Below are positions 23,410 through 54,905 of a stretch of DNA of 64,000 nucleotides, piece after piece (the first letter of the stretch is position 1; each line of letters begins with the position of its first letter). The notes under the pieces are model-generated. The model saw only the letters and a program-made list of their open reading frames with translations, did not search any database and was not told where the DNA came from. Origin of the DNA: an uncultured bacterium (GTDB lineage: Bacteria > Cyanobacteriota > Vampirovibrionia > Gastranaerophilales > Gastranaerophilaceae); the NCBI GenBank assembly GCA_905215335.1, contig CAJMPQ010000001.1:157383-221382 (forward strand), read 5' to 3'. Position numbers and translations under genes: made by a program.

Positions 23410-24570
23410 ATGGTAGAAGTAAATAGGATTGGGAATTATGGTTATTATCCTCAAGCCACATCTTTCACTGCACAAAGACGTGAATACAGAGGAATTGAAG
23501 ATTTTAAACCAGGTTTATACGACCCTGAACAAAGAGAAAAAGCTGAAAAAAAATCTAGCAATTTATTAAAATTAACCGCATTAACAGTAGCTGGTATTGG
23601 TGCATACTTGTTCTTTGCTAAAACAGGTAAAGGAAAAGCTTTATGGAATAAAATTACAAGTTTCTTTAGAAAAACTCCTACAGCTCAAGCAACACAAGGT
23701 GCTCAAGCAACACAAGCAACACAAGCAGCCCAAACTGCAGCAACAACTACTGCGACAAACGCTACAACAAAAGGAGCTAAACCACATAGAGTTAGAAAAC
23801 CTAAAGCTCAAAAAGCTATTGTTGCTGAAAATGCAGAATTATTACCAAATCAAAAAGTAAAAATAAAAAATGGCGGTGGAAAAGAAGCTGTACATAAAGT
23901 TAGACGTAATGAAAAGAAAATTACAAATGAAACATTAATGAACGAAAAAAATAATGCAGTGACAACAAAAGATTTAGATAATTGGCAAGCTAGTTTAGGT
24001 AAACAAGCAACACCAGAAGAAACTGTACTTATTAATAATAACAACAAACCTGCAACAACTTCATTAGCAGACGTAATGCAAGAACAAGGTATTCAAAGAA
24101 CTAAAAATTCATCAGGTCGTATTGTGTTAGAACAAACTCAAAAAGCTCCAAAAACAAAAGCTCCAGCTACACCAGTACCTGCAGTTCCTGTAGCCGATAA
24201 TGCAACTAAAATCGCAGAAATTGAAGCTAAAATTGCACAAAATAATAAAACTATAAAGATGTGGAAAGGGATGAGAACATCTCATCTAGAACAAGAAAAC
24301 GCAAAACTACTTAAAGAACTTGATGCATTAAAAGGAAATACTCCAGCAGCTGTTTCTAAACCTGTAAAACCAGTAGCTGAAGTTGCGCCAAATACAAAAG
24401 CAGCTCAAATTGAAGAAGCTTGGGCACAATATACAAGTAAACCTGCAGCAGCTGTTCCTGAAACAAAAGCTCCAACATTAGCTGAAAAATTTGCACAAGT
24501 AGATGCTGAAGCAGCAAAAATGGCTCAAGAAGAAGCTGAAGCACTTGCAAAAATGGGAATTTCCCTATAA
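23410..24570 (+). CDS. Hypothetical membrane-anchored, Ala/Thr/Gln/Pro/Lys-rich low-complexity protein
   Basis: 386 aa. N-terminal ...ATSFTAQRRE motif, one TM segment (LLKLTALTVAGIGAYLFFA), then low-complexity and coiled-coil sequence. Confidence 0.65.
   Translation: MVEVNRIGNYGYYPQATSFTAQRREYRGIEDFKPGLYDPEQREKAEKKSSNLLKLTALTVAGIGAYLFFAKTGKGKALWNKITSFFRKTPTAQATQGAQATQATQAAQTAATTTATNATTKGAKPHRVRKPKAQKAIVAENAELLPNQKVKIKNGGGKEAVHKVRRNEKKITNETLMNEKNNAVTTKDLDNWQASLGKQATPEETVLINNNNKPATTSLADVMQEQGIQRTKNSSGRIVLEQTQKAPKTKAPATPVPAVPVADNATKIAEIEAKIAQNNKTIKMWKGMRTSHLEQENAKLLKELDALKGNTPAAVSKPVKPVAEVAPNTKAAQIEEAWAQYTSKPAAAVPETKAPTLAEKFAQVDAEAAKMAQEEAEALAKMGISL
23683..23727 (+). repeat. Short in-frame tandem repeat (18-nt unit twice, then a 9-nt CAACACAAG unit) encoding AQATQG-AQATQ-ATQ
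   Basis: GCTCAAGCAACACAAGGT / GCTCAAGCAACACAAGCA / ACACAAGCA, read directly. CAACACAAG occurs at 23690, 23708 and 23717. Confidence 0.8.
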
Positions 24571-27853: not shown

Positions 27854-28537
27854 TTATGCTCGCCAAGTTTCTTCCGGTAGTAAATATCTAAGCTTGATAA
27901 TCGTATAATCATTATCCGCATCTTTAACTTTTTGCGTGCCAAGACACTCAAATTTTGAAGAACGTGGGAATACTATTTCGTCATTTGAACCAATTTGGCC
28001 GACTCTAGAAACCCTTGCACCTTCAGGTATTTCAATTTCATACCTGATGCCTCTATTATTTGGCAGATATACAGATGCGTAACCTTTATCAGATGTGGCA
28101 TAAGCATATTCACGCATTATAATAACATCGCCCTTTTTGACATCTAAAGCTTTTTTATATTGTTTATATTCTGAAAAGAACTCCGGTTTTTCACCTATAC
28201 ATCTATATGTATACATCTTTTCAGCAGTAGGCTTTAAAGATTTAAACTGCCAATCCGTTTCCCTTATCATCTCGCGAACTGTCAAGTTTGAATTTATCGC
28301 CGGCATATCTAAATGCTTTGGATTTACTGGATGTATAAAATGATGGTTTATACCATTTAATAAGCCATGAGTATCAACAGATGTTCTTGAAGTGTTTCTA
28401 ACAACTCTATCCGCAACTGCTTCTGCCCAATATTCCTGACAAAACATTGTTTTTTCAAAATGTTTTGCGCTTTTAGTTACTTGTTTAGTATTCGCAGGGT
28501 TTAGTACCTGCTTAACTATTTTTGGCAAAATTTTCAT
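27854..28537 (-). CDS. ADP-ribosyltransferase-like protein (R-S-E clade, C3/Vip2-like catalytic pattern)
   Basis: 227 aa, monocistronic. Arg in TY-R112-CIG, STS-like YAY-A147-T-S149-D, an ARTT-like segment RYEIEIPEGARVSRV, then N185-D-E187-IVFPRSSKFE where Q/ExE normally sits. AGGGGA SD. Confidence 0.5.
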   Translation of the reverse strand: MKILPKIVKQVLNPANTKQVTKSAKHFEKTMFCQEYWAEAVADRVVRNTSRTSVDTHGLLNGINHHFIHPVNPKHLDMPAINSNLTVREMIRETDWQFKSLKPTAEKMYTYRCIGEKPEFFSEYKQYKKALDVKKGDVIIMREYAYATSDKGYASVYLPNNRGIRYEIEIPEGARVSRVGQIGSNDEIVFPRSSKFECLGTQKVKDADNDYTIIKLRYLLPEETWRA

Positions 28538-29098: not shown

Positions 29099-29377
29099 TT
29101 AAACTTGAGATAACTTCTTTTGTTTGTATTCAATCAAACATTTTGCAAGCTGATCAGGACAACTTGTTGGTTTTGGTCCACAAGTAATACCTTGCAAACG
29201 TTCAATAACCTCGTCAATATCCATTCCTTTTATAAGACTTTTAATGCCCTTCAAATTTCCATTACAACCGCCAAAAAATTCAGCATCTAATATTTTATTA
29301 TCTTTAATTGCAACTTGCATCATCTGACAACAAGTACCACTTGTTTGATATTGTATAACTTCTGCTTGCTCTGACAT
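29099..29377 (-). CDS. TSCPD-domain protein (TIGR03905-like four-Cys protein)
   Basis: 92 aa. GTCCQMMQVAIKDNKILDAEFFGGCNGNLKGI...GITCGPKPTSCPDQLAKCL contains the TSCPD motif. Confidence 0.75.
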   Translation of the reverse strand: MSEQAEVIQYQTSGTCCQMMQVAIKDNKILDAEFFGGCNGNLKGIKSLIKGMDIDEVIERLQGITCGPKPTSCPDQLAKCLIEYKQKKLSQV

Positions 29378-29568
29378 TATATTATCCTTTCTTATTAAAT
29401 TCTATTCTACAACTATACAATAGCTTAGCATACATTATATTTATCATAATATTTATTAACTATTTCTTAACTTTCTTAAAATGATACAGAATCTTAATAT
29501 TTTATCCTTGAACTATCAAAAAATGTTTTTATATGTTTTAGAACGAACATGTATTATGGGGAAATCTA

Positions 29569-32500
29569 ATGAGAATATTTAATATAAATATATTTAATCC
29601 TAATTTTAAAGGACAAAGACAAGATAGAAAATCAGTTGCTCAATTAAAACAAGAAAATGCTTATGATTTGAATGTTCCAAATCAAAGAAAAATTAATGAA
29701 GCCATAAATAGATTGGCTACAGTTCCAGGTGAAGATAATGCTAAGTTTTTAATGGATGTAGCAGAGAACTTACAATATGGTACTAATATAGATTTAGAAG
29801 GGAAAAAATCTTATAATGACTGGCAAACTAAATTACGTAACGCAACTGAAAACTCATTAGCACTATCTGATAAATCTGTTCAAGAAAAATTAAGTGAAAA
29901 CTTCAATACTACATTCTCAACACAAAAACCTCTAACAAATACAGAAAAGGAAATTCTTGCTCAACGCAAGTCATTACTCGAAAAAGTAAATCCTGAAGAT
30001 CTTGAAAATATCAAAAACCCAAATATCAAAAATCTTAAAAGAAACTTAGATTATTTAATTGTTTCATCAGAAGTTCCAACATCTCAAAAACTATATATTC
30101 TTAAACGATTAAACTATTTTATGAGTCCGGAATATAAAATAAATGAACAATTAAAAGATAAAAAAACTCAAGCTTTAGCAGAAATGGTTAATGACTTAGT
30201 AGTTAATACACCAGAATCAAAAATCCCAAACATTAAAGCTATTAACCAAAGAGGGCATGGTATTTGTGCAGCTATTTCTATTTGTAGAAAAGCTTTAGCA
30301 TATGAAGATAAACCAAATTATGTTGATATGATTTTATCTGAACTTGATAATAGTAATGAACTTCAAGTTTATGATATTTCAAAATTAGGTTCACATACAA
30401 AAATTCCTATTGACAAAATATATATAGATTTTGATTACGCACTATCTAAAGGATATAGAATTGTAGATACATCAGCAATGTATTGGATGAATGTTGCAGA
30501 TACTGCAGGCCCTAAAAATAATCCTATAGGTTCATATAGTCCTTTTGACAAAAGCAATTTCGATACATTCAATGATGCTCATATAATTAAAGATATTAGT
30601 AATGAATTAGTAAATCAACATGATTATTTCAGAAGCCTTGTAAAAGCTAAAGAAGCATTAGTTAGAGCTAAAAAATCTAAACTAAAAGACTCTATATCAC
30701 CTAAAAACAATAAAGACTTAGCTGAAAATAATCTAGAATTGATTCAAGCTTATAGAAAAGATTTAGTGAATATATTAAAATCAATTTCACCAAATTTATC
30801 AAACAATACAGCTTACGAAATTCTTAGAGATTTGGAAAATCTTGAAGTTCCAACATCTCAAAAACTTAATGAAATTAAGGATTATAAAAAAGACTTTTCA
30901 TACTTACCAAATGAAACAACTAATAGTAAACTTGAAAAAATAAAAGCATTTTTAAGCATTAGTTTACCTAAAGGTACTGATTCTGATAAAATTCAATCTA
31001 TTGCACCTGATGTAATAGATATTACAGATAAAATAAAAGAATACCAACCTGAAGATAAATCATCTATAGCTGCACGAAATATAAACAGAGCAAAATTACT
31101 ATATAATGCTGCTGCAGCTTATAGAACTCAACAAGTTTTCCAATTAGATATTCCAGAAAGACGACTTGATATGATGGAAAGTTTAAATATTTCCGACGAC
31201 GAAACTCGTATTCTGGAAAACATGGATAAATTAATTAAAAAATTAAATAAAAATGAAATAAACCCTGAACTAAGAAGCCGCTTAGCTAAAAACTTTGAGT
31301 CATCAGAAGACAATTTAGAATTAGCCGAAAAATTAAAAAATAACCGAGATACAGTTGAATACATATTAACTGATATAATGGATGATTTATATAAAACTTG
31401 TTTATCAGTAAGTAGAAAAAATGTATTGCTAAATGAATTAAAAGGCTTGCAAGAAGCAATGCTAACTAATCCTGAAGAAGAAACTATAATAGAGTTGGCT
31501 TCAAGATTACAAGTAAAAGAAAATCCAAAAATAATAGCTGAAGAATTACAACACGATATAGAAAGTCTTGAAGCTGAAGACTGTACAAATGAAAAATATA
31601 TCAAACTTTATAATAAATACGGACACAAATCTCAGCTAATAGATTTTAAAAATACAATTGAACGACTCGCAAGTATCATATTTGATGAAAAGAATCAAAC
31701 TATAATAAGAGGTTTTAATGCAATAAATGGTGCCAACCCTGATGCGCCAATGGAAGTTACTACTGAAATATTTAATACAATTGCTCAAAATTTCAATAAT
31801 ATTTCAGGGCTAATCAATGGTTATCAGCAAGCACTAAAAATCATTGATGATAATAATAATATCTTAAACACTACAGATTCTAAAGAAATCATTCTAAAAA
31901 AATTAGAAAACATGGGTGAAATCCCTACAGTAAAAGAACTAAAAACATTACAAGACCATTTTACAAGAATTGATCAAGCTAAAGCAAATAATGAAAATCT
32001 AAAATTAAAAGATTTACCTACTGAATTAACAAGCTTGTCAAAATTTGAAAAAGAAATTCTAAAAAAATATGAATACAACATTAATAGCTGGTATTCAATG
32101 ACAACAAGACGCTTAGACGCTCAATATAAAGAAATTAAAGAACCGCTAAATGAATTAAATAGAGAAATCGGTGTTCAAACAGGAAACAGATGGGTTAGCT
32201 CTGAAGGTCATAGCGGACTTAACTCTCGTCAACAAGTTAAAATTATCGAACACATGACTGACCGTCCATACTATATTGAATATGACGGGAAATTAGCTCT
32301 AAATAAAATTAAAGAATCACCATATTCAGGTATATCCTCAACATCAGTACTTCATACTGAACCAGCTTGGCACGCACAATATATCGTTGATGTAAAACCA
32401 ATAACAATAAATAACAATGGACAAAAAGAAGTAAAAGATACTATAGTTCATGATAACACTTGGGGCGCTGCGGAACACGAAAATACTTGGATTGATGAAA

Positions 32501-35475
32501 ATGGCTTAACTAGAACCGATTATTCAAATGATTATGGCGGTGAGTTAGGATATATTACAGATGAAAATTATAGAAACGGTAAAATCGCAGATAATTTATT
32601 TAATAAAGTTGGAGTTATTCATTCAAAAAACATAGACTCAAAATTATATAAAAAATTGAATAAAGGTGACGATAACGGAATAAAATTCCCACTATTCTCA
32701 GATATAATCCTACCTGGAGAATATCCAAATTCTATGCAATATATTCAACAAATTAGAGACAACACTCTAATATCACCAATAGCATATCTAGACGATTTAG
32801 AAAAATATGCACACTCAATGACTAAGGCTCAAATTCTAAATAGTATAAAAAAAGTTGAAGAAGCCGGCAAATTGACCAATGAAATTTATGAAAACTATAT
32901 AAAACGAATCGAAGGGAAAGAACCATTTAACAATGGAATAAAAACTCTTGAAGATTATAATAAACTTTCAGATAACGATGATTTAAAAATCTTACTTGAA
33001 AAAATAGCTCTTATAAAATCATATCCATCTATGCCTGATATAAAAAGTTTCTATCAAAAAAATCAGGCTAAAGATATCGTAAATATGAAACAGAAAATTC
33101 GTAAAGAAGCTCGTAAAAACTTCGATTACGCATTTAGTAAAAGTCCTGAAATTACTGAATATGGAACGGAAAGCTCTAGAAAAGAACTAAATGAAATTCT
33201 TGATAAGTTCTTAAAAACAAATAATATCTCTATAGCAAATAATAAAATTAATATAATTATCAATTCATTAAAACATATTGATAATACTCAATTTGATGGC
33301 AACTTAGAACACACAATTGATTTAATGTCAAAATCCTTTGAAAGTTCTATGTTGAAAAACACTCCGGATTTTGAAAATAAACAAGAAAAAATTCAAATTT
33401 TAGCTAACAGTATAAAAAATATTTTGCAAACAAATATGGGATTCACGTTAGCTGACTTGGACACTTCTTCATTCTCAGCAGGGAAAATGAAAAGTATTGT
33501 CGATTGGATTGATAATACTTTTGATCCTGCAACAGATGAAGAATTTGTCCAAGTTTTTAATAAATTACAAAACATGACAACTAAAGAATTCAAAGAAAAT
33601 TTTGATTCTAAAATATCAGATAAAGACCTAGGTATAAAACCGATTACAGGCTATGATGTTCTTGTTCAAATAAATTCAGAAAATGAAAAAACACATAATT
33701 CATTATTCAACATAATTTATCAACAAGAATGTTCTAAAAACATGCAACTAAGTAAAACAATTCCTTCGTATGATTACAAGAAATTTGAACGTAAATTACA
33801 CGGTGCAAGATATGTCAAAGGTCAAAGATCTTTTGATGATATTTACATGGATTATTACTACTCATTATTATCTTTAACTCTAGATAAAAGATATAATAAA
33901 ATTAGACAACAAGTCTTTGATAAGTACGGTATGTTTCCTGCTTATCCAAAAATAGACTACGAATCAGAAGAAGATATTGAAGAAATCACAAATAAATTAT
34001 ACAGTGATATCTCAAATGGTGTAGGAACCATAAATGCTTATAAAAAACAAATCAAATCATTTGAGATTATGCAAAAATTAAGCAATAATCTAAATAAATT
34101 GCCTGCAAATCATGAATTAACAAATAAACAAATGGCTTATGTAAGCAAAAAATTAAATGAATTTTCAAACATAAATAAAGATGACGAAACTATTTTATAC
34201 ATATTGGAAAAAATTCAAAACACATTAGCTACTAGCAAAACTGCAGGAGATTTCAAAAATCTAGTTGACTTTATGTGGCACGAACTGAAAATGTATGAAA
34301 AAACCGCAGATGGCAGACCTCTTGCTGATGCGGTAGAATCTCAATTGAATTTCATTAATGAAAATAAAAAAGATTTCATTAGAAATGCAATTGACCCTAA
34401 ATATCATAAACAAGCTTTTGAAATTTTAAATAAATGGATTACAGCAAAAGCAAAAGAAGATTATGCAATGGATATCGAAGGAGATACTATTCCTCAATCT
34501 GACATAATATTTGCACAATTTAAAGATCTATATGAAAAACATAGATTTACAAAAACTCCGGAAAAAATACTAAATGAATTTTTACTATTAAACGCAAAAG
34601 ATTCAAGACCAATTGATGCAAATCTTTCTGGAGAAAAAGCAATAAACACAGTAAAAGAATTACAAACCATGAGAACTACTTATAAAATAAATTTAGCAGG
34701 ATTATTATATAATGCTAATTTATTAGACATTCAATATATTCTTATGGATTGTGCTAAACAAGGAAACTTAAATGTTGTTAAAGAAAACTTTAAAAAATCT
34801 ACATTGAAGTTAAAAAATGGTAATACAATTCCATTAGATTCTGATATAGGATTAAGTATTATCCTATCACCACTAATTACCGAAGTTGATTTAGCAACCG
34901 CCTTAATGTTTATTGACCAATTTGATTTATCAGAAAAAGTAATGGGTATTCTAACTAAAGATACTTCATTTGAAAAGGAATACAAAAATCTAAAACGAAT
35001 TGCAAGTATTAAAAAGAGTATCTATCAACAACAGATTTTCATAGATAAAGCTATAAAATCTTTGGGTAATATCGACAATAATCCTAATTATATAAATGAT
35101 ATAAATAGAGTTAAAGAAGATATTGCAAGAAGAATTAAAAATAGTAACTATAGACTAACTTCAGAAATCTATGCAAAAGCAATAGAAAATGCATTGACTG
35201 AAATGGAAAATAGACCGGATTGTTCAAAAACCGCATTGCTAATCAGTAATATAGAAACCGCACATGCAGCAGCAAAATATGTTGCAGATAACCATTTTGA
35301 AAAATTAAATACAATCTTATATAAAGTACAAAATACATTCAAAATAGTTAATGCAATAGAAGTTCCTGCAAACTCAAAAGCTCAAGAACAAAAAAATAAA
35401 TACATAGAAGGTTTTTATAAACTTCAAAATTATAAAGAAGATTTAGATGAAGCTTTAGTTAAATATCAAAAATAG
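29569..35475 (+). CDS. Giant hypothetical protein (1968 aa) with the N-terminal leader-like motif and papain/PepC-like Cys, His and Asn motifs
   Basis: Single uninterrupted 5.9-kb ORF with ATG start, GGGGA SD and a terminator hairpin overlapping its stop. Motifs: NQRGHGIC(233)AAISICRK, PAWH(935)AQYIVDV, VHDN(963)TWG. The rest is predicted helical and K/N/E-rich. Confidence 0.85.
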   Translation: MRIFNINIFNPNFKGQRQDRKSVAQLKQENAYDLNVPNQRKINEAINRLATVPGEDNAKFLMDVAENLQYGTNIDLEGKKSYNDWQTKLRNATENSLALSDKSVQEKLSENFNTTFSTQKPLTNTEKEILAQRKSLLEKVNPEDLENIKNPNIKNLKRNLDYLIVSSEVPTSQKLYILKRLNYFMSPEYKINEQLKDKKTQALAEMVNDLVVNTPESKIPNIKAINQRGHGICAAISICRKALAYEDKPNYVDMILSELDNSNELQVYDISKLGSHTKIPIDKIYIDFDYALSKGYRIVDTSAMYWMNVADTAGPKNNPIGSYSPFDKSNFDTFNDAHIIKDISNELVNQHDYFRSLVKAKEALVRAKKSKLKDSISPKNNKDLAENNLELIQAYRKDLVNILKSISPNLSNNTAYEILRDLENLEVPTSQKLNEIKDYKKDFSYLPNETTNSKLEKIKAFLSISLPKGTDSDKIQSIAPDVIDITDKIKEYQPEDKSSIAARNINRAKLLYNAAAAYRTQQVFQLDIPERRLDMMESLNISDDETRILENMDKLIKKLNKNEINPELRSRLAKNFESSEDNLELAEKLKNNRDTVEYILTDIMDDLYKTCLSVSRKNVLLNELKGLQEAMLTNPEEETIIELASRLQVKENPKIIAEELQHDIESLEAEDCTNEKYIKLYNKYGHKSQLIDFKNTIERLASIIFDEKNQTIIRGFNAINGANPDAPMEVTTEIFNTIAQNFNNISGLINGYQQALKIIDDNNNILNTTDSKEIILKKLENMGEIPTVKELKTLQDHFTRIDQAKANNENLKLKDLPTELTSLSKFEKEILKKYEYNINSWYSMTTRRLDAQYKEIKEPLNELNREIGVQTGNRWVSSEGHSGLNSRQQVKIIEHMTDRPYYIEYDGKLALNKIKESPYSGISSTSVLHTEPAWHAQYIVDVKPITINNNGQKEVKDTIVHDNTWGAAEHENTWIDENGLTRTDYSNDYGGELGYITDENYRNGKIADNLFNKVGVIHSKNIDSKLYKKLNKGDDNGIKFPLFSDIILPGEYPNSMQYIQQIRDNTLISPIAYLDDLEKYAHSMTKAQILNSIKKVEEAGKLTNEIYENYIKRIEGKEPFNNGIKTLEDYNKLSDNDDLKILLEKIALIKSYPSMPDIKSFYQKNQAKDIVNMKQKIRKEARKNFDYAFSKSPEITEYGTESSRKELNEILDKFLKTNNISIANNKINIIINSLKHIDNTQFDGNLEHTIDLMSKSFESSMLKNTPDFENKQEKIQILANSIKNILQTNMGFTLADLDTSSFSAGKMKSIVDWIDNTFDPATDEEFVQVFNKLQNMTTKEFKENFDSKISDKDLGIKPITGYDVLVQINSENEKTHNSLFNIIYQQECSKNMQLSKTIPSYDYKKFERKLHGARYVKGQRSFDDIYMDYYYSLLSLTLDKRYNKIRQQVFDKYGMFPAYPKIDYESEEDIEEITNKLYSDISNGVGTINAYKKQIKSFEIMQKLSNNLNKLPANHELTNKQMAYVSKKLNEFSNINKDDETILYILEKIQNTLATSKTAGDFKNLVDFMWHELKMYEKTADGRPLADAVESQLNFINENKKDFIRNAIDPKYHKQAFEILNKWITAKAKEDYAMDIEGDTIPQSDIIFAQFKDLYEKHRFTKTPEKILNEFLLLNAKDSRPIDANLSGEKAINTVKELQTMRTTYKINLAGLLYNANLLDIQYILMDCAKQGNLNVVKENFKKSTLKLKNGNTIPLDSDIGLSIILSPLITEVDLATALMFIDQFDLSEKVMGILTKDTSFEKEYKNLKRIASIKKSIYQQQIFIDKAIKSLGNIDNNPNYINDINRVKEDIARRIKNSNYRLTSEIYAKAIENALTEMENRPDCSKTALLISNIETAHAAAKYVADNHFEKLNTILYKVQNTFKIVNAIEVPANSKAQEQKNKYIEGFYKLQNYKEDLDEALVKYQK
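30070..30092 (+). repeat. Copy 1 of an exact 23-nt direct repeat inside the giant gene
   Basis: GAAGTTCCAACATCTCAAAAACT, encoding EVPTSQKL. An identical copy lies at 30844-30866. Confidence 0.9.
30844..30866 (+). repeat. Copy 2 of the exact 23-nt direct repeat inside the giant gene
   Basis: GAAGTTCCAACATCTCAAAAACT, in the same reading frame as copy 1, 774 nt downstream. Confidence 0.9.
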
Positions 35476-35503
35476 GTAAGTTGTAAAACTTACCTATTTT
35501 TTA
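35468..35503. terminator. Bidirectional terminator between the giant gene and ftsZ
   Basis: AATAGGTAAG-ttgtaaaa-CTTACCTATT flanked by AAAA and TTTT. The TAG stop of the giant gene lies in the 5' arm. Confidence 0.75.
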
Positions 35504-35520
35504 CAATATATTATCTAATC

Positions 35521-36672
35521 CTAATTTTTCTTCAAGAAATCAGGTACGTCTAAATGAATTGGTGCCATTTGAGGGAAACCAAATCCTGAAGAACTTGAAT
35601 TATTTTGAGTTGAAGCAGGAGTTGAATTTACAGTTGATGTAGTAGATTTACCTTGAAAATATTCAGCTGCAGATAATCTAGGAGCTTCATCTTTTGATTT
35701 TTCAGCAAAACCAGTTGCAATAACTGTAATCTGAATTTCATTTTGGAATGCTTCATTAATAGCAGTACCAATAATAACATCTGCATCATCTTTAACAACA
35801 TTGTTAATTACAGAAGTTGCATCATTGATTTCATATAATGTCATATTAGAACTACCAGTAATATTAACAATAATACCACTAGCACCATTAATTGATGATT
35901 CTAACAATTGAGAATTGATAGCCATTTCAGCAGCCTTAATAGCTCTACCTTCACCTTGAGCTCTACCAATACCCATCAATGCTGTACCAGAATCTTTAAC
36001 AACTTTTCTTACATCAGCAAAGTCAATATTTATCATACCTGGAATAGTAATGATATCTGAAAGACCTTGAATACCTCTGTATAGAACTTCATCAGTAACA
36101 CAGAAAGCCTCGCGTAAACCGATTTGTCTTTCTACAACTTGAAGTAATTTATCGTTAGGAACAACAAGAATAGCATCAACATATTTTTTAAGTTTTTCAA
36201 TACCAGCTTCAGCTTGAGCCATTCTTTTTTTACCTTCCCAACAGAAAGGTTTTGTAACAAAAGCAATAGTTAAAATTCCTAAATCTCTAGCAACTTGAGC
36301 TACAATAGGAGCTGCACCAGTTCCGGTACCACCACCCATGCCGGCAGTAATAAATACCATATCTGCACCTTCTAAAGCTTTAGTAATTTCATCTTTAACT
36401 TCAATAGCAGCTCTTTCACCAGTTGAAGGATCACCACCAGAACCTAAACCTTTAGTTGTTGCAACACCTAATTGCAATTTATTAGGAACATTACTAAAAG
36501 TTAATACTTGCAAGTCAGTATTCATAATCCAGAATTCAACACCAGCAAGTTTAGCCTTAATCATTCTATTAACAGCGTTTCCACCGCCACCACCAACACC
36601 AATAACCTTGATGCGAGTAGGGTTTATATGTGATCTTTGATTATTATCATAATTAGATATAATATTTTCCAT
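35521..36672 (-). CDS. ftsZ: Cell division protein FtsZ
   Basis: IKVIGVGGGGGNAVNRMI...GVEFWIMNTDLQVL...GLGSGGDP..G...A....ITAGMGGGTGTGAAPIVA. 383 aa, GGAGG SD. Confidence 0.97.
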   Translation of the reverse strand: MENIISNYDNNQRSHINPTRIKVIGVGGGGGNAVNRMIKAKLAGVEFWIMNTDLQVLTFSNVPNKLQLGVATTKGLGSGGDPSTGERAAIEVKDEITKALEGADMVFITAGMGGGTGTGAAPIVAQVARDLGILTIAFVTKPFCWEGKKRMAQAEAGIEKLKKYVDAILVVPNDKLLQVVERQIGLREAFCVTDEVLYRGIQGLSDIITIPGMINIDFADVRKVVKDSGTALMGIGRAQGEGRAIKAAEMAINSQLLESSINGASGIIVNITGSSNMTLYEINDATSVINNVVKDDADVIIGTAINEAFQNEIQITVIATGFAEKSKDEAPRLSAAEYFQGKSTTSTVNSTPASTQNNSSSSGFGFPQMAPIHLDVPDFLKKN

Positions 36673-36789
36673 TGTACCTCCTACATTATAATCTATATTA
36701 TATACTAAAAAATAAACAATTCACGTATTTCAATATTTCGTAATAAATTAAATGAAGAGGTCATTATAAAATCTAATTAAAATTTAAAA

Positions 36790-37155
36790 TTAAGCTCGTA
36801 AATCTAATTTATTTCCCTGATTTTTATTTTTAATAGCCTGAGCCTGCATTTTTATTTGTTCAGCTTGACCAGCAACCTTATAATCTTGTCCTGAAGGGTC
36901 TGACGGAGCCATCGCAGCTCTTATAACAGCATTTGCATGATCAATAGTTTTTTGAGGATTATTTTTATCCAAAGTAGGCATCTGTATAGGTACATGACCT
37001 GATACCGGGATACCTTCAGCATTTCTTTCAATGGAGATTGCGCCGGCAAATTGTCCACCTGCAGCCTTATGAGCCATTTCATGAGCGTAAATATGATTAT
37101 AATTTTTAGTAATTAAGTCCTGCTTAGCCATTTGAGATAAACAATTTGGAACCAT
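36790..37155 (-). CDS. SprA-related family protein (putative small metalloprotease-like, HExxH)
   Basis: AHEMAHKAAGGQFAGAISIERNAEGIPVSGHVPIQMP...IRAAMAPSDPSGQDYKVAGQAEQ matches my recollection of the SprA-related family pattern. ATG 37155 has GGAGG 5 nt upstream; the track start at 37161 is a GTG. Confidence 0.6.
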   Translation of the reverse strand: MVPNCLSQMAKQDLITKNYNHIYAHEMAHKAAGGQFAGAISIERNAEGIPVSGHVPIQMPTLDKNNPQKTIDHANAVIRAAMAPSDPSGQDYKVAGQAEQIKMQAQAIKNKNQGNKLDLRA

Positions 37156-37212
37156 ACACACCTCCAGTTTATGTTACAAGTGTAGCAAATTTATTTATCT
37201 CTGTCAAGAAAC

Positions 37213-37677
37213 TTATTTAATTAGCTTGCCATAATCATTTGCTTCAGCTTCAGGAATCCTTGAAATAAGTTCATTTACTTTTGAATTAATAGTATTCAAT
37301 TCATTAGCTTTTTTCTCTGCTGCATTTAAAAATTTCAAACTTCCATTTTTGAAAAAGAAAAATGGTTGAGAAGTAATATAATTTTTAGCTGCACCAAGTT
37401 TACCACCAGCTTCAGAATCAACAACTTCTGCAACTAAAGCATTACGTTTATCTGATTTTCTAATAATAATATTAACAGGATTTTTTTCTTGATTTTTTAC
37501 TACTTCGTCAATACCTTTAAAAAAGCCTTCTCTTGATTTTTCTCCTAATTTTAGTACTTGATGTTTAATAACGCTATGTGCGCTTTTATCTAATTTTATA
37601 GCCATACCAAAACTTGGATTTGCTTTATATGTATTACAGTTAAGATTTTGATTAAAATTAGTAATTCCTAAATTCAT
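37213..37677 (-). CDS. Hypothetical protein (154 aa) with N-terminal ...ANPSFGMAIKL motif
   Basis: ATG with AAAGGG SD. No family recognised. Confidence 0.6.
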   Translation of the reverse strand: MNLGITNFNQNLNCNTYKANPSFGMAIKLDKSAHSVIKHQVLKLGEKSREGFFKGIDEVVKNQEKNPVNIIIRKSDKRNALVAEVVDSEAGGKLGAAKNYITSQPFFFFKNGSLKFLNAAEKKANELNTINSKVNELISRIPEAEANDYGKLIK

Positions 37678-45668: not shown

Positions 45669-46589
45669 TTAAGCTACTTCATTTACTGAATTTTCAGATT
45701 TTGCATTAGTAAAATCACTAATTTTGTAATCATGGTGACTAAAACGTTGCATTTGAGGTTCTACGCATTTTTTAATGATAACTTTTTCTGTAAATACATC
45801 AATTGGTTTTACAGTCAATAATAGTAATGCAAATGAACCTAAAGATTTCCAAGCTTTAAGCTTAAATATACGTTTATCAATTGTTTTCTTTAAAGCTTCT
45901 GAATCATTACAAGTTTCAAGAAGATTTTTAAATTCTTTTTTAGCAAAATCTTTCAATCTATCTTGATTAGAATTAGCAATTGCACCGTGCTTACAATTAC
46001 CTAGGATTTTATCATACACTTTTACAAATATATTTTTGCCTTCATAATTCTTTCTTCTATCATCCAAGAAAATGTTAAGGTTATTCTCAAATTTTTCAAA
46101 CATTTCTTCTCTATTTAACGAAGGATTAAATAAATCATGTTCTGCGGCATGATTTTTTATATATCTAAATGTTTGTTCTTTAGCATTAGTTGATAACTTT
46201 TCACCTTTATACTTATCAATTTGAGAAAATGCACTTTGACCGGCATGACCAAAAACTGTTGGTAAAATTATACTGGCAAATGCTTGGAACACTGCTTGAG
46301 AAAATGCTCTTTGCGCATTTGGATCATATTGATTACCTTTGTTTTTGTATTTATCATAAACATCCGCGCCAAAATACATTAAAGCAGGAACCCAAAATAA
46401 AGTAGCTGCAGTTGGTGCAATTTCGTTTATCGCAACACCAATATCATTAGTATAACCTAAACCTCTCATTGGCCAATTTGCCAACGGATCTACATACTTC
46501 TTTTCTTTTTTCTTTTTTCTTGCATCAAAGTTCACATCTTGTTCTTGTCCGGTGAAACTTCTTGTCATCGTAATTGAGTTAATTTTCAT
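45669..46589 (-). CDS. Hypothetical protein with an MTP18/MTFP1-like (mitochondrial fission process protein 1-like) N-terminal domain and the leader-like motif
   Basis: 306 aa. MKINSITMTRSFTGQ..., then RGLGYTNDIGVAINEIAPTAATLFWVPALMYFGADVYDKYKNKG and AVFQAFASIILPT. Compare, from my recollection, human MTFP1 RYLGYANEVGEAFRSLVPAAVVWLSYGVASSYVLADAIDKGKKAG and FVWQALASVAIPG. Confidence 0.45.
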   Translation of the reverse strand: MKINSITMTRSFTGQEQDVNFDARKKKKEKKYVDPLANWPMRGLGYTNDIGVAINEIAPTAATLFWVPALMYFGADVYDKYKNKGNQYDPNAQRAFSQAVFQAFASIILPTVFGHAGQSAFSQIDKYKGEKLSTNAKEQTFRYIKNHAAEHDLFNPSLNREEMFEKFENNLNIFLDDRRKNYEGKNIFVKVYDKILGNCKHGAIANSNQDRLKDFAKKEFKNLLETCNDSEALKKTIDKRIFKLKAWKSLGSFALLLLTVKPIDVFTEKVIIKKCVEPQMQRFSHHDYKISDFTNAKSENSVNEVA

Positions 46590-52877: not shown

Positions 52878-54905
52878 ATGCTTATACAAAACATCTTTTC
52901 AACAAATAATTACAATAACAACTCTCTCAATAATACTCATTTAAAAAAAACAAATCCATATTTTACAGGAAACATAACAAAAGAAATTCAACTAACTCAA
53001 AAAGAATTGCAACAAGTTTCTGTAATTTCTGAATGGTATGACAAAATTTCAAAGATATTTACATCGCTAAGCAGCGGTCTTTACCAAAATAAATTTAAAT
53101 CGCTATACCCTAATTTAGTTAGCGGAGAAAAAATAAAGGGTTTTGTCTTTAATTCTTTCAAAGAATTAAAAAATAAAAACCTGCAAATTGTAAAATTTAA
53201 TACTAAGGAAAATAGTGATGAACTTTTAACATTCAGCATTTTGGATAAAAATAATAAAAATCTACTAAGATACAGAATAAATAAACTTGGAAAAGCTATT
53301 ATATCAGCAGATGAAGAAAACCTTTCCCAATTATCAATAAATCCATTTCAAAAAAATACAACTATTGATTATGATAAATTTCTAACTTCTTTCCAAAAAG
53401 AAGTTGAGAATTTAGGATTTTATTCTGAAAACTTCAAAGATATACACAGAAAAACCTTCGGAAGAGCAAGTGTTGACTTCACTCAAGCTTTTTCAGAAGT
53501 GAAATCCTTACAAAAAAGTTCTGGAATTAATATCAAAGATATTTCAAACATAACCAATAATTATGCAAGCTTAAATCAAGTAATAAATGCAAATAACGGA
53601 AAAGATGCACTAGCTTTAAAACAAGCGTATTTTAATTACATGAGCGCAAAAACTAAAGGGCTTATATTTAAAAACTTATTAGGAGAAAAAACTGTTGCCT
53701 ACTGTCCATTACAAAGTAAAGATGACAATAGAGTATTCAAAATAACCATACACAATTCGAATAATGAATTGGAAAATGCATTTGTTATATTCGCAGATGG
53801 GAGAATTGCAAAACAAAAAATTCTATCTGCCGAAACTAACGCATTCCGCCCAAATAATTTAACATATATATCTGATGAAGAAATTAATAATTTTGAAATT
53901 CCTAAGATTTTTACCGCATTAAATGATGAATTTGAAAAATTTAAAACATTTATAATTGATACCAGAAATTCTAAAATTCAAAACAAAATAGAAGCAAAAG
54001 AAACTAAACAAAAAGAAAAACGCCAAGCTCAAAAACTAGAAAAGCAAGAAAAACAAGAACTTAAACGTCAGGAAAAAGAAAAAATAAAGAGTGAAAAAGA
54101 AGCACAAAAACAAGAACAATTAAAAATAAAACAAGAAATTAAAGAACTAAAAGAACAGCAAAAAAATGCAAAAATCGAACAAAAACGTCTTGCAATAGAA
54201 GAAAAACAAAAACAAGCAACCTTAAAAGCGCAAGCAAAAGCAATAAAAATTGCTCAAAAAATTATGAAGCAAGAAGAAATACAACTTAATAAGTTTATAA
54301 AAAAACTCGCTAAAATAAAAAAACAACAAGCAATACTCGAAGTACCAAATATATCAAAAAGAACAAATACAACAAGATATAGAAATCTATTACTTAAAAA
54401 CCTTTCAAAATCACTAAACGAATTATTTAATTTACCAATTGAGCAACGCAGTCCTCATCTAATCCACGAAAAATTACCAAACGGAAATATATTTGTCGGA
54501 AGATGTTCTTTCAAAGCCTCAGATGGTGCTTACATAACTGTATCAAGAATAAAATCACCTAAATATGTTGATTTTACTTATTACTCAATAAAGGCAGAAA
54601 AAGATGGAAAAGAATTAATTTTCAATCTTGATCCTGAAACTTCTAAAATAATAAATTCAAAAAATGGAAAACCTATTATCAATAAACAGGCTATAATTAG
54701 TTACATCAGCAAAGATGACTATTTACAACAAAATCCTGATGCCATAAATCTTCCAATGTACATAAAAGAATTATTTAACAATAAGCCATCAGCAAAAAGA
54801 AAAATAATTGATCTAAAACCTACACTCCAGCAAAATATCTTGACTGAAAAAGAGAAGGCCATTCAAAAAGCTTTAAATGACATTGAAGATTTAGATGAGA
54901 TTTAA
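52878..54905 (+). CDS. Hypothetical protein (675 aa) with the leader-like N-terminus, three similar beta-rich modules and a central K/E/Q-rich coiled coil
   Basis: MLIQNIFSTNNYNNNSLNNTHLKKTNPYFTGN.... The central stretch KETKQKEKRQAQKLEKQEKQELKRQEKEKIKSEKEAQKQEQLKIKQEIKELKEQQKN... is charged low complexity. No family recognised. Confidence 0.7.
   Translation: MLIQNIFSTNNYNNNSLNNTHLKKTNPYFTGNITKEIQLTQKELQQVSVISEWYDKISKIFTSLSSGLYQNKFKSLYPNLVSGEKIKGFVFNSFKELKNKNLQIVKFNTKENSDELLTFSILDKNNKNLLRYRINKLGKAIISADEENLSQLSINPFQKNTTIDYDKFLTSFQKEVENLGFYSENFKDIHRKTFGRASVDFTQAFSEVKSLQKSSGINIKDISNITNNYASLNQVINANNGKDALALKQAYFNYMSAKTKGLIFKNLLGEKTVAYCPLQSKDDNRVFKITIHNSNNELENAFVIFADGRIAKQKILSAETNAFRPNNLTYISDEEINNFEIPKIFTALNDEFEKFKTFIIDTRNSKIQNKIEAKETKQKEKRQAQKLEKQEKQELKRQEKEKIKSEKEAQKQEQLKIKQEIKELKEQQKNAKIEQKRLAIEEKQKQATLKAQAKAIKIAQKIMKQEEIQLNKFIKKLAKIKKQQAILEVPNISKRTNTTRYRNLLLKNLSKSLNELFNLPIEQRSPHLIHEKLPNGNIFVGRCSFKASDGAYITVSRIKSPKYVDFTYYSIKAEKDGKELIFNLDPETSKIINSKNGKPIINKQAIISYISKDDYLQQNPDAINLPMYIKELFNNKPSAKRKIIDLKPTLQQNILTEKEKAIQKALNDIEDLDEI

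Follow-up and report, generated by a model that had tools for sequence, protein, structure and literature searches.

The largest open reading frame of the window, as we term the 64,000-nucleotide stretch of DNA that was analysed, encodes a protein of 1968 amino acids in which three short motifs resemble the catalytic signatures of papain-like (clan CA) cysteine peptidases. The first two of these motifs lie about 700 residues apart. This locus raises the question of whether the protein carries a clan CA active site that is split in its primary sequence, or whether the resemblance is coincidental. The available evidence makes it probable that the protein is a large soluble clan CA cysteine peptidase with a calpain-type catalytic core divided in this manner, and that it represents a very divergent new family.

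The second largest open reading frame of the window encodes 795 amino acids, which bears out the description of the 1968-aa gene as the largest. Because its upstream neighbour is divergent and its downstream neighbour, ftsZ, is convergent, the gene is monocistronic. A hairpin with the features of an intrinsic terminator (Table 1) overlaps its TAG stop codon and is common to the convergent ftsZ. RNA folding assigns this hairpin a free energy of -17 kcal/mol and a z-score of -6.55, and none of 200 shuffled sequences was equally stable. A consensus terminator scan missed the hairpin, which was found by direct folding. The initial annotation had described a monocistronic gene with its own Shine-Dalgarno sequence and a terminator over the stop codon, and each part of that description holds.

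Table 1. Features of the 1968-aa protein gene and of the regions that it encodes (positions are those of the window).
Feature	Position	Strand	Basis
Gene for the 1968-aa protein, stop included	29569..35475	+	ORF list and translation; full-length homologues with 36-100% identity
Shine-Dalgarno-like GGGGA, 7 nt before the ATG	29558..29562	+	Direct sequence reading
N-terminal peptide, aa 1-15 (MRIFNINIFNPNFKG)	29569..29613	+	pLDDT <50 for aa 1-12; ends in family-wide F-x-G
N-terminal helical domain, aa 16-185, strongly conserved	29614..30123	+	AF2 secondary structure, conservation profile
Putative Cys half of peptidase core (L / PC1-like subdomain), aa 186-347	30124..30609	+	Q227/C233 invariant, helix 233-246
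Helical insert, aa 348-871	30610..32181	+	AF2, pLDDT about 85-95
Putative His/Asn half of core (R / PC2-like subdomain), aa 872-1052	32182..32724	+	Invariant residues, AF2, Foldseek, hhalign
C-terminal region, about 916 aa, K/N/E/I/L-rich, weakly conserved	32725..35472	+	Conservation profile
Intrinsic terminator hairpin	35468..35501	.	RNA fold; 15-bp stem, GUAA loop, A-run 5', U-run 3'

All three motifs were recovered from the translation with the codon positions first assigned to them. The Cys motif NQRGHGICAAISICRK starts at aa 226 and includes C233 (TGT, 30265-30267), the His motif PAWHAQYIVDV starts at aa 932 and includes H935 (CAC, 32371-32373), and the Asn motif VHDNTWG starts at aa 960 and includes N963 (AAC, 32455-32457). 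Two further residues of interest, Gln227 and Trp965, are encoded at 30247-30249 and 32461-32463. The Cys and His are separated by 702 residues and the His and Asn by 28. Together, Q227 (oxyanion hole), C233, H935 and N963, followed by W965, reproduce the clan CA order of Gln, Cys, His and Asn.

Conservation of the Cys, His and Asn among orthologs had been proposed as a check on this assignment, and it is complete. Residues Q227, C233, H935, N963, W965 and G966 are 100% invariant in 119 homologues. In a second set of 96 homologues that includes the most divergent members, the first five of these residues are again invariant, and G966 is kept in 94. Since only about 39 of the 1968 positions are at least 95% conserved in these sets (96-119 full-length homologues, down to approximately 36% identity), the invariance of the motif residues is far beyond chance; the likelihood that three positions named in advance would all fall within this conserved group is about 8e-6. 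Within the same group, C233 is the sole Cys and H935 is the sole His. Two acidic residues, E969 and D976, located at Asn+6 and Asn+13, are also invariant in the homologues.

A structure model of residues 1-1100 (AF2, pLDDT 89.7, pTM 0.84, with secondary structure assigned by DSSP) places these residues in the secondary-structure context expected for clan CA. A helix spanning residues 233-246 is predicted to open with C233. A strand formed by residues 934-949 begins around H935, and its hairpin partner (952-962) is followed directly by N963, such that His and Asn reside on adjacent antiparallel strands. This arrangement was reproduced when the His/Asn half was modelled alone (pLDDT 86.6).

The model also indicates what separates the two halves. 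The insert is predicted to be entirely helical, with one long helix (348-406) running outward, a second (825-871) returning antiparallel to it, and a bundle between them. It is located where the two peptidase subdomains meet and is less conserved than the core, and every family member carries it (Cys-His spacing 461-1333, median 694). An insert of roughly 700 residues between Cys and His had been described at the outset; the spacing is indeed 702 residues and the insert is helical, but the insert itself comprises about 520 residues. Beyond the core, the C-terminal region is at least 95% conserved only at P1320, P1460 and G1786, and it has no match in Pfam, NCBIfam, PADLOC or the PDB, in keeping with its first characterization as a K/N/E-rich and unrecognizable stretch of about 1000 residues. 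No internal repeats were found in the 1968-aa protein.

Searches with sequences and profiles did not place the protein in any established family. Pfam yielded nothing for the entire protein and no peptidase family for 36 family members from which the insert had been deleted (E<=10), including the calpain family PF00648, and neither PF00112 nor PF03051 gave a match. NCBIfam and PADLOC likewise gave no match for the protein or its parts. When the PDB was searched with phmmer and hmmsearch, using the single protein and both full-length and insert-deleted profiles, only marginal helical or spurious matches were returned, and no calpain was among them. Foldseek comparison of the whole 1-1100 model with the PDB yielded only helical noise, because the domain is discontinuous and a sequential aligner is unable to bridge the insert.

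A different result was obtained with the His/Asn half alone, for which ranks 1-7 and 9-11 of the Foldseek list against the PDB are clan CA cysteine peptidases from four families (best E 0.059, best prob 0.80; no PDB match at E<=1e-3). The top matches are calpain 1qxp (first, prob 0.77), staphopain, calpain-3, falcipain-2/3 (rmsd 3.5 Å over 84 columns) and a Josephin DUB, and papain-like toxins (CdiA-CT) and a T6SS amidase appear lower in the list. A comparison with the viral library BFVD was uninformative. Although none is individually significant, these matches point to a clan CA-like fold for the predicted structure of the His/Asn half. The original proposal of a clan CA Cys/His/Asn site split by a huge helical insert is supported by residue invariance, by the modelled structural context and by the Foldseek matches, but not by any HMM match.

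The Asn motif, which had been thought to point especially to the PepC/bleomycin-hydrolase (C1B) type, instead indicates calpain (C2) as the nearest family. Specifically, the sequence NTWGAAEHENTWID is in register with the calpain signature NPWGxxEWxGxWSD. The pattern N.WG..E....W.D is present in 118 of 119 family members and in 111 of 121 calpains, and is found in 0 of 126 C1 peptidases. By sequence, the family thus possesses a calpain-type Asn motif. Profile comparisons with hhalign point in the same direction, although the reported probabilities, at 2-12%, are low: for the His/Asn half, P is 0.0026 with calpain-1 and 0.011 with a set of 121 calpains, and the alignment pairs HAQY with HAYS and NTWGAAEHENTWID with NPWGEVEWTGAWSD. 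Its score against calpains is 24.8, compared to 13.7 +/- 1.8 for 40 column shuffles, or about 6 standard deviations, versus about 2 standard deviations against C1 peptidases, for which P values of 0.018-0.035 fall within the shuffle range. On the basis of the motif pattern and these profile scores, C1B/PepC was rejected as the nearest family in favour of calpain.

The Cys half is less informative in such comparisons. In hhalign, its similarity to calpain PC1 does not exceed that of shuffled columns. The aligner sets Q227/C233 against Q19/C25 of papain and against the Gln and Cys of calpain, though not significantly. A chimeric profile that joins the Cys and His/Asn halves aligns with C1 in one co-linear alignment that covers all motifs of papain and pairs Q227/C233 with Q19/C25 and NTWG with NSWG (P = 0.018-0.027).

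It is distinctly unlikely that the clan CA fold serves an enzyme other than an endopeptidase, such as a transglutaminase-like cross-linker, a deamidase, an isopeptidase or DUB-like hydrolase, an amidase or an acyltransferase. The Josephin DUB, CdiA-CT toxins and T6SS amidase among the Foldseek matches of the His/Asn half would be compatible with such a function, as would the failure of every peptidase family HMM, whereas the protein has the complete Gln(-6)/Cys/His/Asn-x-Trp set that marks C1 and C2 peptidases, and its Asn motif is specifically calpain-like. In transglutaminases, NlpC/P60 amidases and arylamine N-acetyltransferases, the catalytic residues are Cys/His/Asp or Cys/His/His, and these enzymes are not known to have Asn-x-Trp-Gly. 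The third putative catalytic residue of the 1968-aa protein is not that of the transglutaminase or NlpC/P60 triad, being an invariant Asn in N-x-W-G, and neither Transglut_core nor NLPC_P60 of Pfam matched the full protein or the 36 insert-deleted sequences.

The protein was initially considered an orphan, but it has at least 266 homologues at E<=1e-3, which form 195 clusters at 50% identity and derive from at least 142 GTDB species. Nearly all belong to Gastranaerophilales/Melainabacteria, and all are unnamed proteins. The gene is single-copy in these species, its length is constant, and identity is 36-60% along the entire protein. A search of 1.84 billion representatives revealed no short, insert-less relatives that might bridge the family to others, as the best 150 matches are all giants or their fragments. 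The gene resides in housekeeping synteny (proBA, tyrA, ftsZ), and within its own clade 26 of 38 loci have ftsZ tail-to-tail with it, an adjacency that is confined to this one clade. A survey of the neighbourhood found no secretion-system, immunity or mobile-element genes near the gene. Functional linkage or an operon inferred through the neighbourhood was considered and rejected, given that the adjacent housekeeping genes are oriented divergently or convergently and that the ftsZ adjacency occurs in one clade only. An ADP-ribosyltransferase-like ORF is present 1 kb upstream on the opposite strand.

The N-terminus of the protein had been called leader-like. A peptide of the form M-K/R-I...F-x-G is indeed conserved there, and F13 and G15 are kept also in divergent members, but there is no evidence of cleavage or export. 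A simple hydropathy test revealed no hydrophobic signal or transmembrane segment, as the Kyte-Doolittle mean over 19 residues peaks at only 1.84, around aa 1764, in a segment that contains E and D. The conserved residues F13, G15, R17, D19 and R20 run directly into the conserved folded N-terminal domain. Several further lineage-specific ORFs of the window begin with a similar N-terminal sequence, and enrichment of the F-x-G motif outside the 1968-aa family is modest.

These observations bear on the suggestion that the protein resembles secreted toxins and effectors, according to which the N-terminal peptide would act as a leader for export, and the toxic module of a large secreted or injected protein would be its clan CA domain. 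We regard this explanation as quite improbable. Conservation of an N-terminal peptide that is disordered in the model, the comparable N-termini of other lineage-specific ORFs, the nearby ADP-ribosyltransferase-like ORF, and a size and clan CA domain reminiscent of toxins with papain-like modules could all be accommodated by it. Against it stand the lack of a hydrophobic signal or transmembrane segment, the continuity of F13-R20 with the folded N-terminal domain, the modest F-x-G enrichment beyond the family, and a neighbourhood of housekeeping genes free of secretion, immunity or mobile-element functions. Furthermore, the single-copy, wide and syntenic distribution of a gene of constant length in at least 142 species argues for a role in cell physiology and against a role as a toxin. 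A cell-biological function, even one related to division given the tail-to-tail arrangement with ftsZ, is conceivable.

The notion that the resemblance is coincidental, or that the protein is a dead pseudo-enzyme acting purely as a structural or scaffolding giant, is extremely improbable: a mostly helical protein without any HMM-level match to peptidase families might suggest it, but among the 1968 positions no Cys or His other than the putative catalytic ones is invariant across about 200 clusters, the putative catalytic residues occur in the correct order, spacing and helix/strand context, the best fold matches of the His/Asn half belong to clan CA, and pseudo-peptidases typically lose catalytic residues. 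For comparison, 337 calpain homologues have been classed as non-peptidases on the ground that an active-site residue is not conserved (Rawlings 2015, PMC4631099).

For the favoured interpretation, a split calpain-type peptidase, the following arrangement can be proposed. The Cys half would provide Gln227 for the oxyanion hole and, at the start of a helix, Cys233 as the nucleophile. On a beta-hairpin, the His/Asn half would present His935 as the general base, with Asn963 to orient it and Trp965 to shield it. Catalysis would proceed by a thiolate/imidazolium pair in the cleft where both halves pack together. The helical stalk-and-bundle module of about 520 residues would sit at the position of the calpain PC1/PC2 hinge, and the core would be flanked by the conserved N-terminal helical domain on one side and by the roughly 900-residue C-terminal region on the other. 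A scaffold for substrate recognition or regulation may be formed by the insert together with the helical domains that flank the core. The active site of calpain forms only once PC1 and PC2 are brought into register, and a module inserted at the hinge would be well placed for gating. We infer that the two halves assemble and that the protein is proteolytic, and its activity might be gated.

A more far-reaching reading, and an unlikely one, is that the family constitutes an order-wide, unrecognized calpain-type lineage in a non-photosynthetic group that is sister to Cyanobacteria. Its PC1/PC2 hinge would have become a helical lever of 500 residues by which active-site assembly is gated, possibly in concert with Ca2+ bound at site 2, which would have been retained. 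If true, this would be a mechanistically new form of regulation among clan CA proteases, and it would have relevance for the debate on whether calpains have a bacterial or cyanobacterial origin.

The uncultured Gastranaerophilales are common in the gut microbiomes of humans and animals, and the majority of the proteins specific to this lineage are unannotated. The gene for the 1968-aa protein is among the largest conserved genes of this order, and it can now be given a biochemical assignment that is open to testing and that names the catalytic residues. Our literature search found no paper on this protein family, and the papers on bacterial calpains mention neither Melainabacteria nor split cores. 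As far as the searched libraries and literature show, a calpain-type core with a hinge module of about 520 residues is undescribed. The split core offers a natural experiment on the assembly and gating of clan CA active sites. Because the family escapes all current HMM libraries, its alignments could seed a new Pfam/MEROPS family.

Several known systems invite comparison. Giant bacterial proteins and toxins with an embedded clan CA module, such as those with C58 motifs of the LifA/Efa1 type, have contiguous protease domains, combined with glycosyltransferase or translocation modules, and are encoded by accessory virulence genes. They are similar to the 1968-aa protein in their very large size and in having a cysteine-peptidase-like module within mostly helical sequence. 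In contrast, the 1968-aa gene is core, syntenic and single-copy, and no such glycosyltransferase, translocation or contiguous protease module was detected in its product. Staphopains A and B (C47) match the His/Asn half at Foldseek ranks 2 and 6 (prob 0.63-0.77), but these, like further small peptidases, DUBs and toxins of clan CA, are compact and contiguous (140-180 residues), and share sequence motifs with the protein only at the His and Asn positions. The papain family (C1, PF00112), to which C1B aminopeptidase C and bleomycin hydrolase (PF03051) also belong, shares Gln-x5-Cys, a Cys at the helix N-terminus, a His that opens a strand, and Asn-[ST]-Trp-Gly. The Cys-Trp pair of C1 is absent, as Cys233 is followed by Ala, and so is the C1 spacing NSWG..WG..GY. 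There is also no I29 propeptide, to which the N-terminal domain shows no similarity.

The closest likeness is to the CysPc core of calpain (C2, clan CA, PF00648), in the order Gln-x5-Cys, His, Asn and in a two-subdomain organization wherein PC1 would have its counterpart in the Cys half and PC2 in the His/Asn half. The Gln-Cys spacing of 6 is that of both papain and calpain-1, as verified in their sequences. The His motif is H-A-Y-S in calpain and H-A-Q-Y here, with His-Asn spacings of 24 and 28, and N-x-W-G-x-x-E-x-x-x-x-W-x-D is in exact register, including both acidic positions. In rat calpain-2, E292 and D299 are ligands of Ca2+ site 2 (PMC4631099), and E969 and D976 lie at the same offsets from the Asn; neither Ca2+ site 1 nor the two remaining ligands of site 2 can be clearly recognized in the family. 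The two differ in that the calpain Cys and His are 157 residues apart, whereas 702 residues (461-1333 in the family) separate them here in a non-contiguous core, and the calpain-III, EF-hand and PPC domains are absent from the 1968-aa protein. Bacterial and cyanobacterial calpain homologues have been described (Rawlings 2015, PMC4631099; also PMC9380684), yet bacterial calpains are described as rare and patchy in distribution (PMC4631099), in contrast to the 1968-aa family, which occurs universally, as a single copy, within one order of bacteria. Such a family would also have a bearing on hypotheses that trace calpains to Cyanobacteria or their vicinity. A divergent calpain-like family universal in one order of Vampirovibrionia (Melainabacteria) would alter this picture.

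Translation of the 29569-35475 ORF, which encodes a 1,968-residue protein (hereafter the giant), placed the three papain-like motifs around C233, H935 and N963 exactly where the initial annotation, made from the sequence alone, had located them. These residues are strictly conserved. Specifically, a MAFFT alignment of 119 full-length homologues shows no variation at Q227, C233, H935, N963, W965 and G966. In a wider alignment of 96 sequences, in which the most divergent members were included, Q227, C233, H935, N963 and W965 are 100% conserved, and C233 and H935 are the sole conserved Cys and His residues of the protein. This alignment holds ~39 positions of 1,968 that are at least 95% conserved (36 of the 39 before residue 1005), and the chance that three positions named in advance would all fall in this set is approximately (39/1968)^3, or roughly 8e-6. 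Furthermore, Gln227 lies six residues before Cys233, a spacing identical to that of Q19 and C25 in papain and of the Gln and Cys of calpain-1, as verified residue by residue on PDB sequences.

The giant had been taken for an orphan, but a search of 5.8 billion proteins recovered 266 homologues, at least 119 of them full length (1,930-2,160 aa, 36-100% identity over 99-100% of the query). Names are few among them, and each is 'hypothetical protein' from Candidatus Melainabacteria or Gastranaerophilales. Searching 1.84 billion representatives exhaustively with a profile yielded 195 clusters at 50% identity. When one genome per GTDB species was scanned, 142 species carried the gene, one copy each; essentially all carriers are gut or rumen Gastranaerophilales/Melainabacteria MAGs. 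Three short gene-bearing contigs (L029, L057 and L082) are assigned in their deposits to Acutalibacteraceae, Brachyspira and Gammaproteobacteria MAGs; mis-binning of Gastranaerophilales DNA is the probable cause. Divergent members of 2,100-2,480 aa (proteins P0198-P0238; contig L083, 4885-12321) reside on ~39% G+C contigs (the window is ~28% G+C) adjoining pantothenate kinase, SpoIIM, RDD and photolyase genes, and retain the Q/C/H/N/W set, the large insert and an N-terminal [AS]-F-x-G-x-R-x-D motif. These members probably come from other Vampirovibrionia lineages.

An AlphaFold2 model of residues 1-1100, built from a 68-sequence alignment (pLDDT 89.7, pTM 0.84), agrees with the earlier proposal that a papain-like domain is interrupted by a helical insert. 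The insert (aa 348-871) is predicted to occupy the crossover between the Cys-bearing (L/PC1) and His/Asn-bearing (R/PC2) subdomains, and C233, H935 and N963 are placed relative to helix and strands as the catalytic residues of papain-like enzymes are. Every family member carries the insert, with 460-1,300 residues between the halves. The top 150 clusters of the profile search are all giants (up to 2,478 aa) or pieces of giants, and no short, insert-less relative was seen among these 150 matches from 1.84 billion representatives.

Features of the giant gene, its surroundings and its predicted protein (AlphaFold2 model for secondary structure)
Feature	Position	Strand	Remarks
Giant ORF	29569-35475	+	5,907 nt, 1,968 residues; by far the largest ORF of the window
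C233 codon TGT	30265-30267	+	
H935 codon CAC	32371-32373	+	
N963 codon AAC	32455-32457	+	
Perfect 15-bp hairpin	35468-35501		overlaps TAG stop, between convergent giant gene and ftsZ; dG -17 kcal/mol; 0/200 shuffles equally stable
ftsZ and small SprA-related ORF	35521-37161	-	downstream
92-aa ORF	29099-29377	-	upstream; L001 orthologue has TSCPD domain
227-aa ORF	27854-28537	-	ADP-ribosyltransferase exoenzyme domain (PF03496, E = 1.8e-5, just above gathering score)
ORF, giant-like N-terminus	15877-16791	+	
ORF, giant-like N-terminus	16805-17377	+	
ORF, giant-like N-terminus	17385-17732	+	
ORF, giant-like N-terminus	23410-24570	+	
ORF, giant-like N-terminus	37213-37677	-	
ORF, giant-like N-terminus	45669-46589	-	
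ORF, giant-like N-terminus	52878-54905	+	
Disordered	aa 1-12		
Helical domain	aa 16-185		
Helix opening with C233	aa 233-246		
Cys half	to ~aa 347		two helices, four short strands
Helix leading out of domain	aa 348-406		then helical bundle
Returning helix	aa 825-871		
Strand opened by H935	aa 934-949		
Hairpin partner strand	aa 952-962		then N963 and W965

Foldseek with the whole model returned helical noise only (E>0.2), because the domain is interrupted by 520 residues. We also built a model of the His/Asn half on its own (aa 872-1056; pLDDT 86.6, pTM 0.80). No PDB match to this half is individually significant (best E 0.059), but 10 of the top 11 belong to clan CA and represent four of its families: a mu-like calpain (rank 1), staphopain (ranks 2 and 6), the calpain-3 protease core (ranks 3 and 5), falcipain-2/3 (ranks 4, 7, 9 and 11; probability up to 0.80, rmsd 3.5 A over 84 columns) and a Josephin-type deubiquitinase (rank 10). 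Papain-like CdiA-CT toxins and a T6SS amidase appear at lower ranks, and a viral structure library gave nothing useful.

Pfam, NCBIfam, PADLOC and PDB sequence searches with the giant gave no match, and families were compared by hhalign profile-profile alignment without a secondary-structure term. The C1 (papain family) profile comprised papain, five further seeds and 120 real cathepsin-L-like sequences, all with PF00112. With the insert deleted, the family profile gave one weak co-linear alignment to C1 (P = 0.018-0.027), in which Q227/C233 lie opposite Q19/C25, and NTWG opposite NSWG. The His/Asn half aligned with calpain-1 (P = 0.0026) and with 121 calpains, all with PF00648 (P = 0.011), placing HAQY opposite HAYS and NTWGAAEHENTWID opposite NPWGEVEWTGAWSD in exact register. 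Its calpain score was 24.8, compared with 13.7 +/- 1.8 (maximum 17.6) for 40 column-shuffled queries; against C1 it was 19.5, compared with 13.7 +/- 3.2 (maximum 24.5). The Cys half scored no higher than column shuffles against calpain and marginally above shuffles against C1. The pattern N.WG..E....W.D occurs in 111 of 121 calpains, 0 of 126 C1 peptidases and 118 of 119 family members. Rat calpain-2 has E292 and D299 as this Glu and Asp, and both bind Ca2+ at site 2, which has four ligands in all (PMC4631099); they lie at Asn+6 and Asn+13 on the 1MDW sequence, and the invariant E969 and D976 of the giant have equal offsets.

These scores, counts and offsets make calpain (C2) the nearest known family. 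The PepC/bleomycin hydrolase type (C1B) proposed by the initial annotation is rejected as nearest, given the absence of the motif from 126 C1 peptidases and the better calpain scores; the part of that proposal that is supported is a clan CA Cys/His/Asn site split by a large helical insert. PF00648 matched neither the giant nor insert-deleted members, which places the giant formally outside the calpains, and the description that fits it best is that of a new, very divergent calpain-like family in clan CA.

The gene was described as monocistronic, with its own Shine-Dalgarno sequence and a terminator over its stop codon, and this description holds. GGGGA lies 7 nt 5' of the ATG. A consensus terminator scan missed the hairpin at the stop, which direct folding reveals; because an A-run precedes and a U-run follows it, it can terminate both the giant gene and convergent ftsZ, and is likely a bidirectional intrinsic terminator. 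With the upstream neighbour on the opposite strand and a terminator shared with ftsZ, the gene is therefore monocistronic. An antisense 158-aa ORF with a TTG start inside it (31128-31604, minus strand) is almost certainly spurious.

Resemblance to secreted toxins or effectors had also been proposed. We argue for a cellular role instead, because the gene is single-copy and spread order-wide, with constant architecture and housekeeping synteny. Around it in the window lie proB, proA, tyrA, a FeMo-cofactor-family protein, ftsZ, an SprA-related protein and a uridine-kinase-like protein, and one divergent member on a 39% G+C contig is likewise surrounded by housekeeping genes. Of 38 loci belonging to the clade with at least 43% identity, 26 have ftsZ directly downstream, tail-to-tail, as do 0 of 8 more distant loci, and the 92-aa upstream ORF is kept in 35 of 82 related loci; this neighbourhood is conserved in that clade and missing in distant members. 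The vicinity of the gene lacks an operon partner, a secretion system, immunity genes and mobile elements. Only 8 of 82 related loci have the ADP-ribosyltransferase-like ORF, which in the window lies 1 kb 5' on the opposite strand.

The giant may nevertheless be exported by a non-classical route. The leader-like N-terminus reported for it is real insofar as a peptide M-K/R-I...F-x-G of variable length (10-60 residues) is conserved family-wide, but the peptide has no hydrophobic core, and no hydrophobic N-terminal signal or transmembrane segment was found in the protein. F13, G15, R17, D19 and R20 run directly into the conserved folded N-domain. Several lineage-specific ORFs of the window, mostly without Pfam match, have similar N-termini (M-K/R-I-x-x-I ... 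[SNA]-F-[KTQ]-G; for example MKINSITMTRSFTGQEQD and MKIINFTGTY), with modest enrichment outside the giant family among 638 ORFs of the window and 82 related loci. Hydropathy, folded-domain continuity and motif enrichment gave no evidence of an export leader; the peptide could be a shared tag in Gastranaerophilales. The N-terminal helical domain has no similarity to an I29-type propeptide, and the C-terminal 916 residues, almost without invariant positions, show no internal repeats or detectable homology.

The Gln/Cys/His/Asn/Trp set is complete, invariant and in the correct order and secondary-structure context, and the His/Asn half carries a calpain-type motif and has clan CA peptidases as its best, individually non-significant, structural matches. 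In the mechanism that we propose, the two halves would pack against each other and leave a cleft for the catalytic ion pair of Cys233 and His935, with His935 oriented by Asn963, the oxyanion hole formed by Gln227 and the His-Asn bond shielded by Trp965. Calpain activity requires that PC1 and PC2 be brought into register. Because the insert would lie at that hinge, it is plausible that the insert, and possibly also a retained Ca2+ site, regulates activity.

No model in the libraries searched describes this family, and no description of it was found in the literature. What is new is a predicted clan CA, calpain-like peptidase whose core is split within a giant protein. Bacterial calpains have been described as rare, patchy and contiguous (PMC4631099, PMC9380684), whereas the putative core of the giant is divided by its insert.
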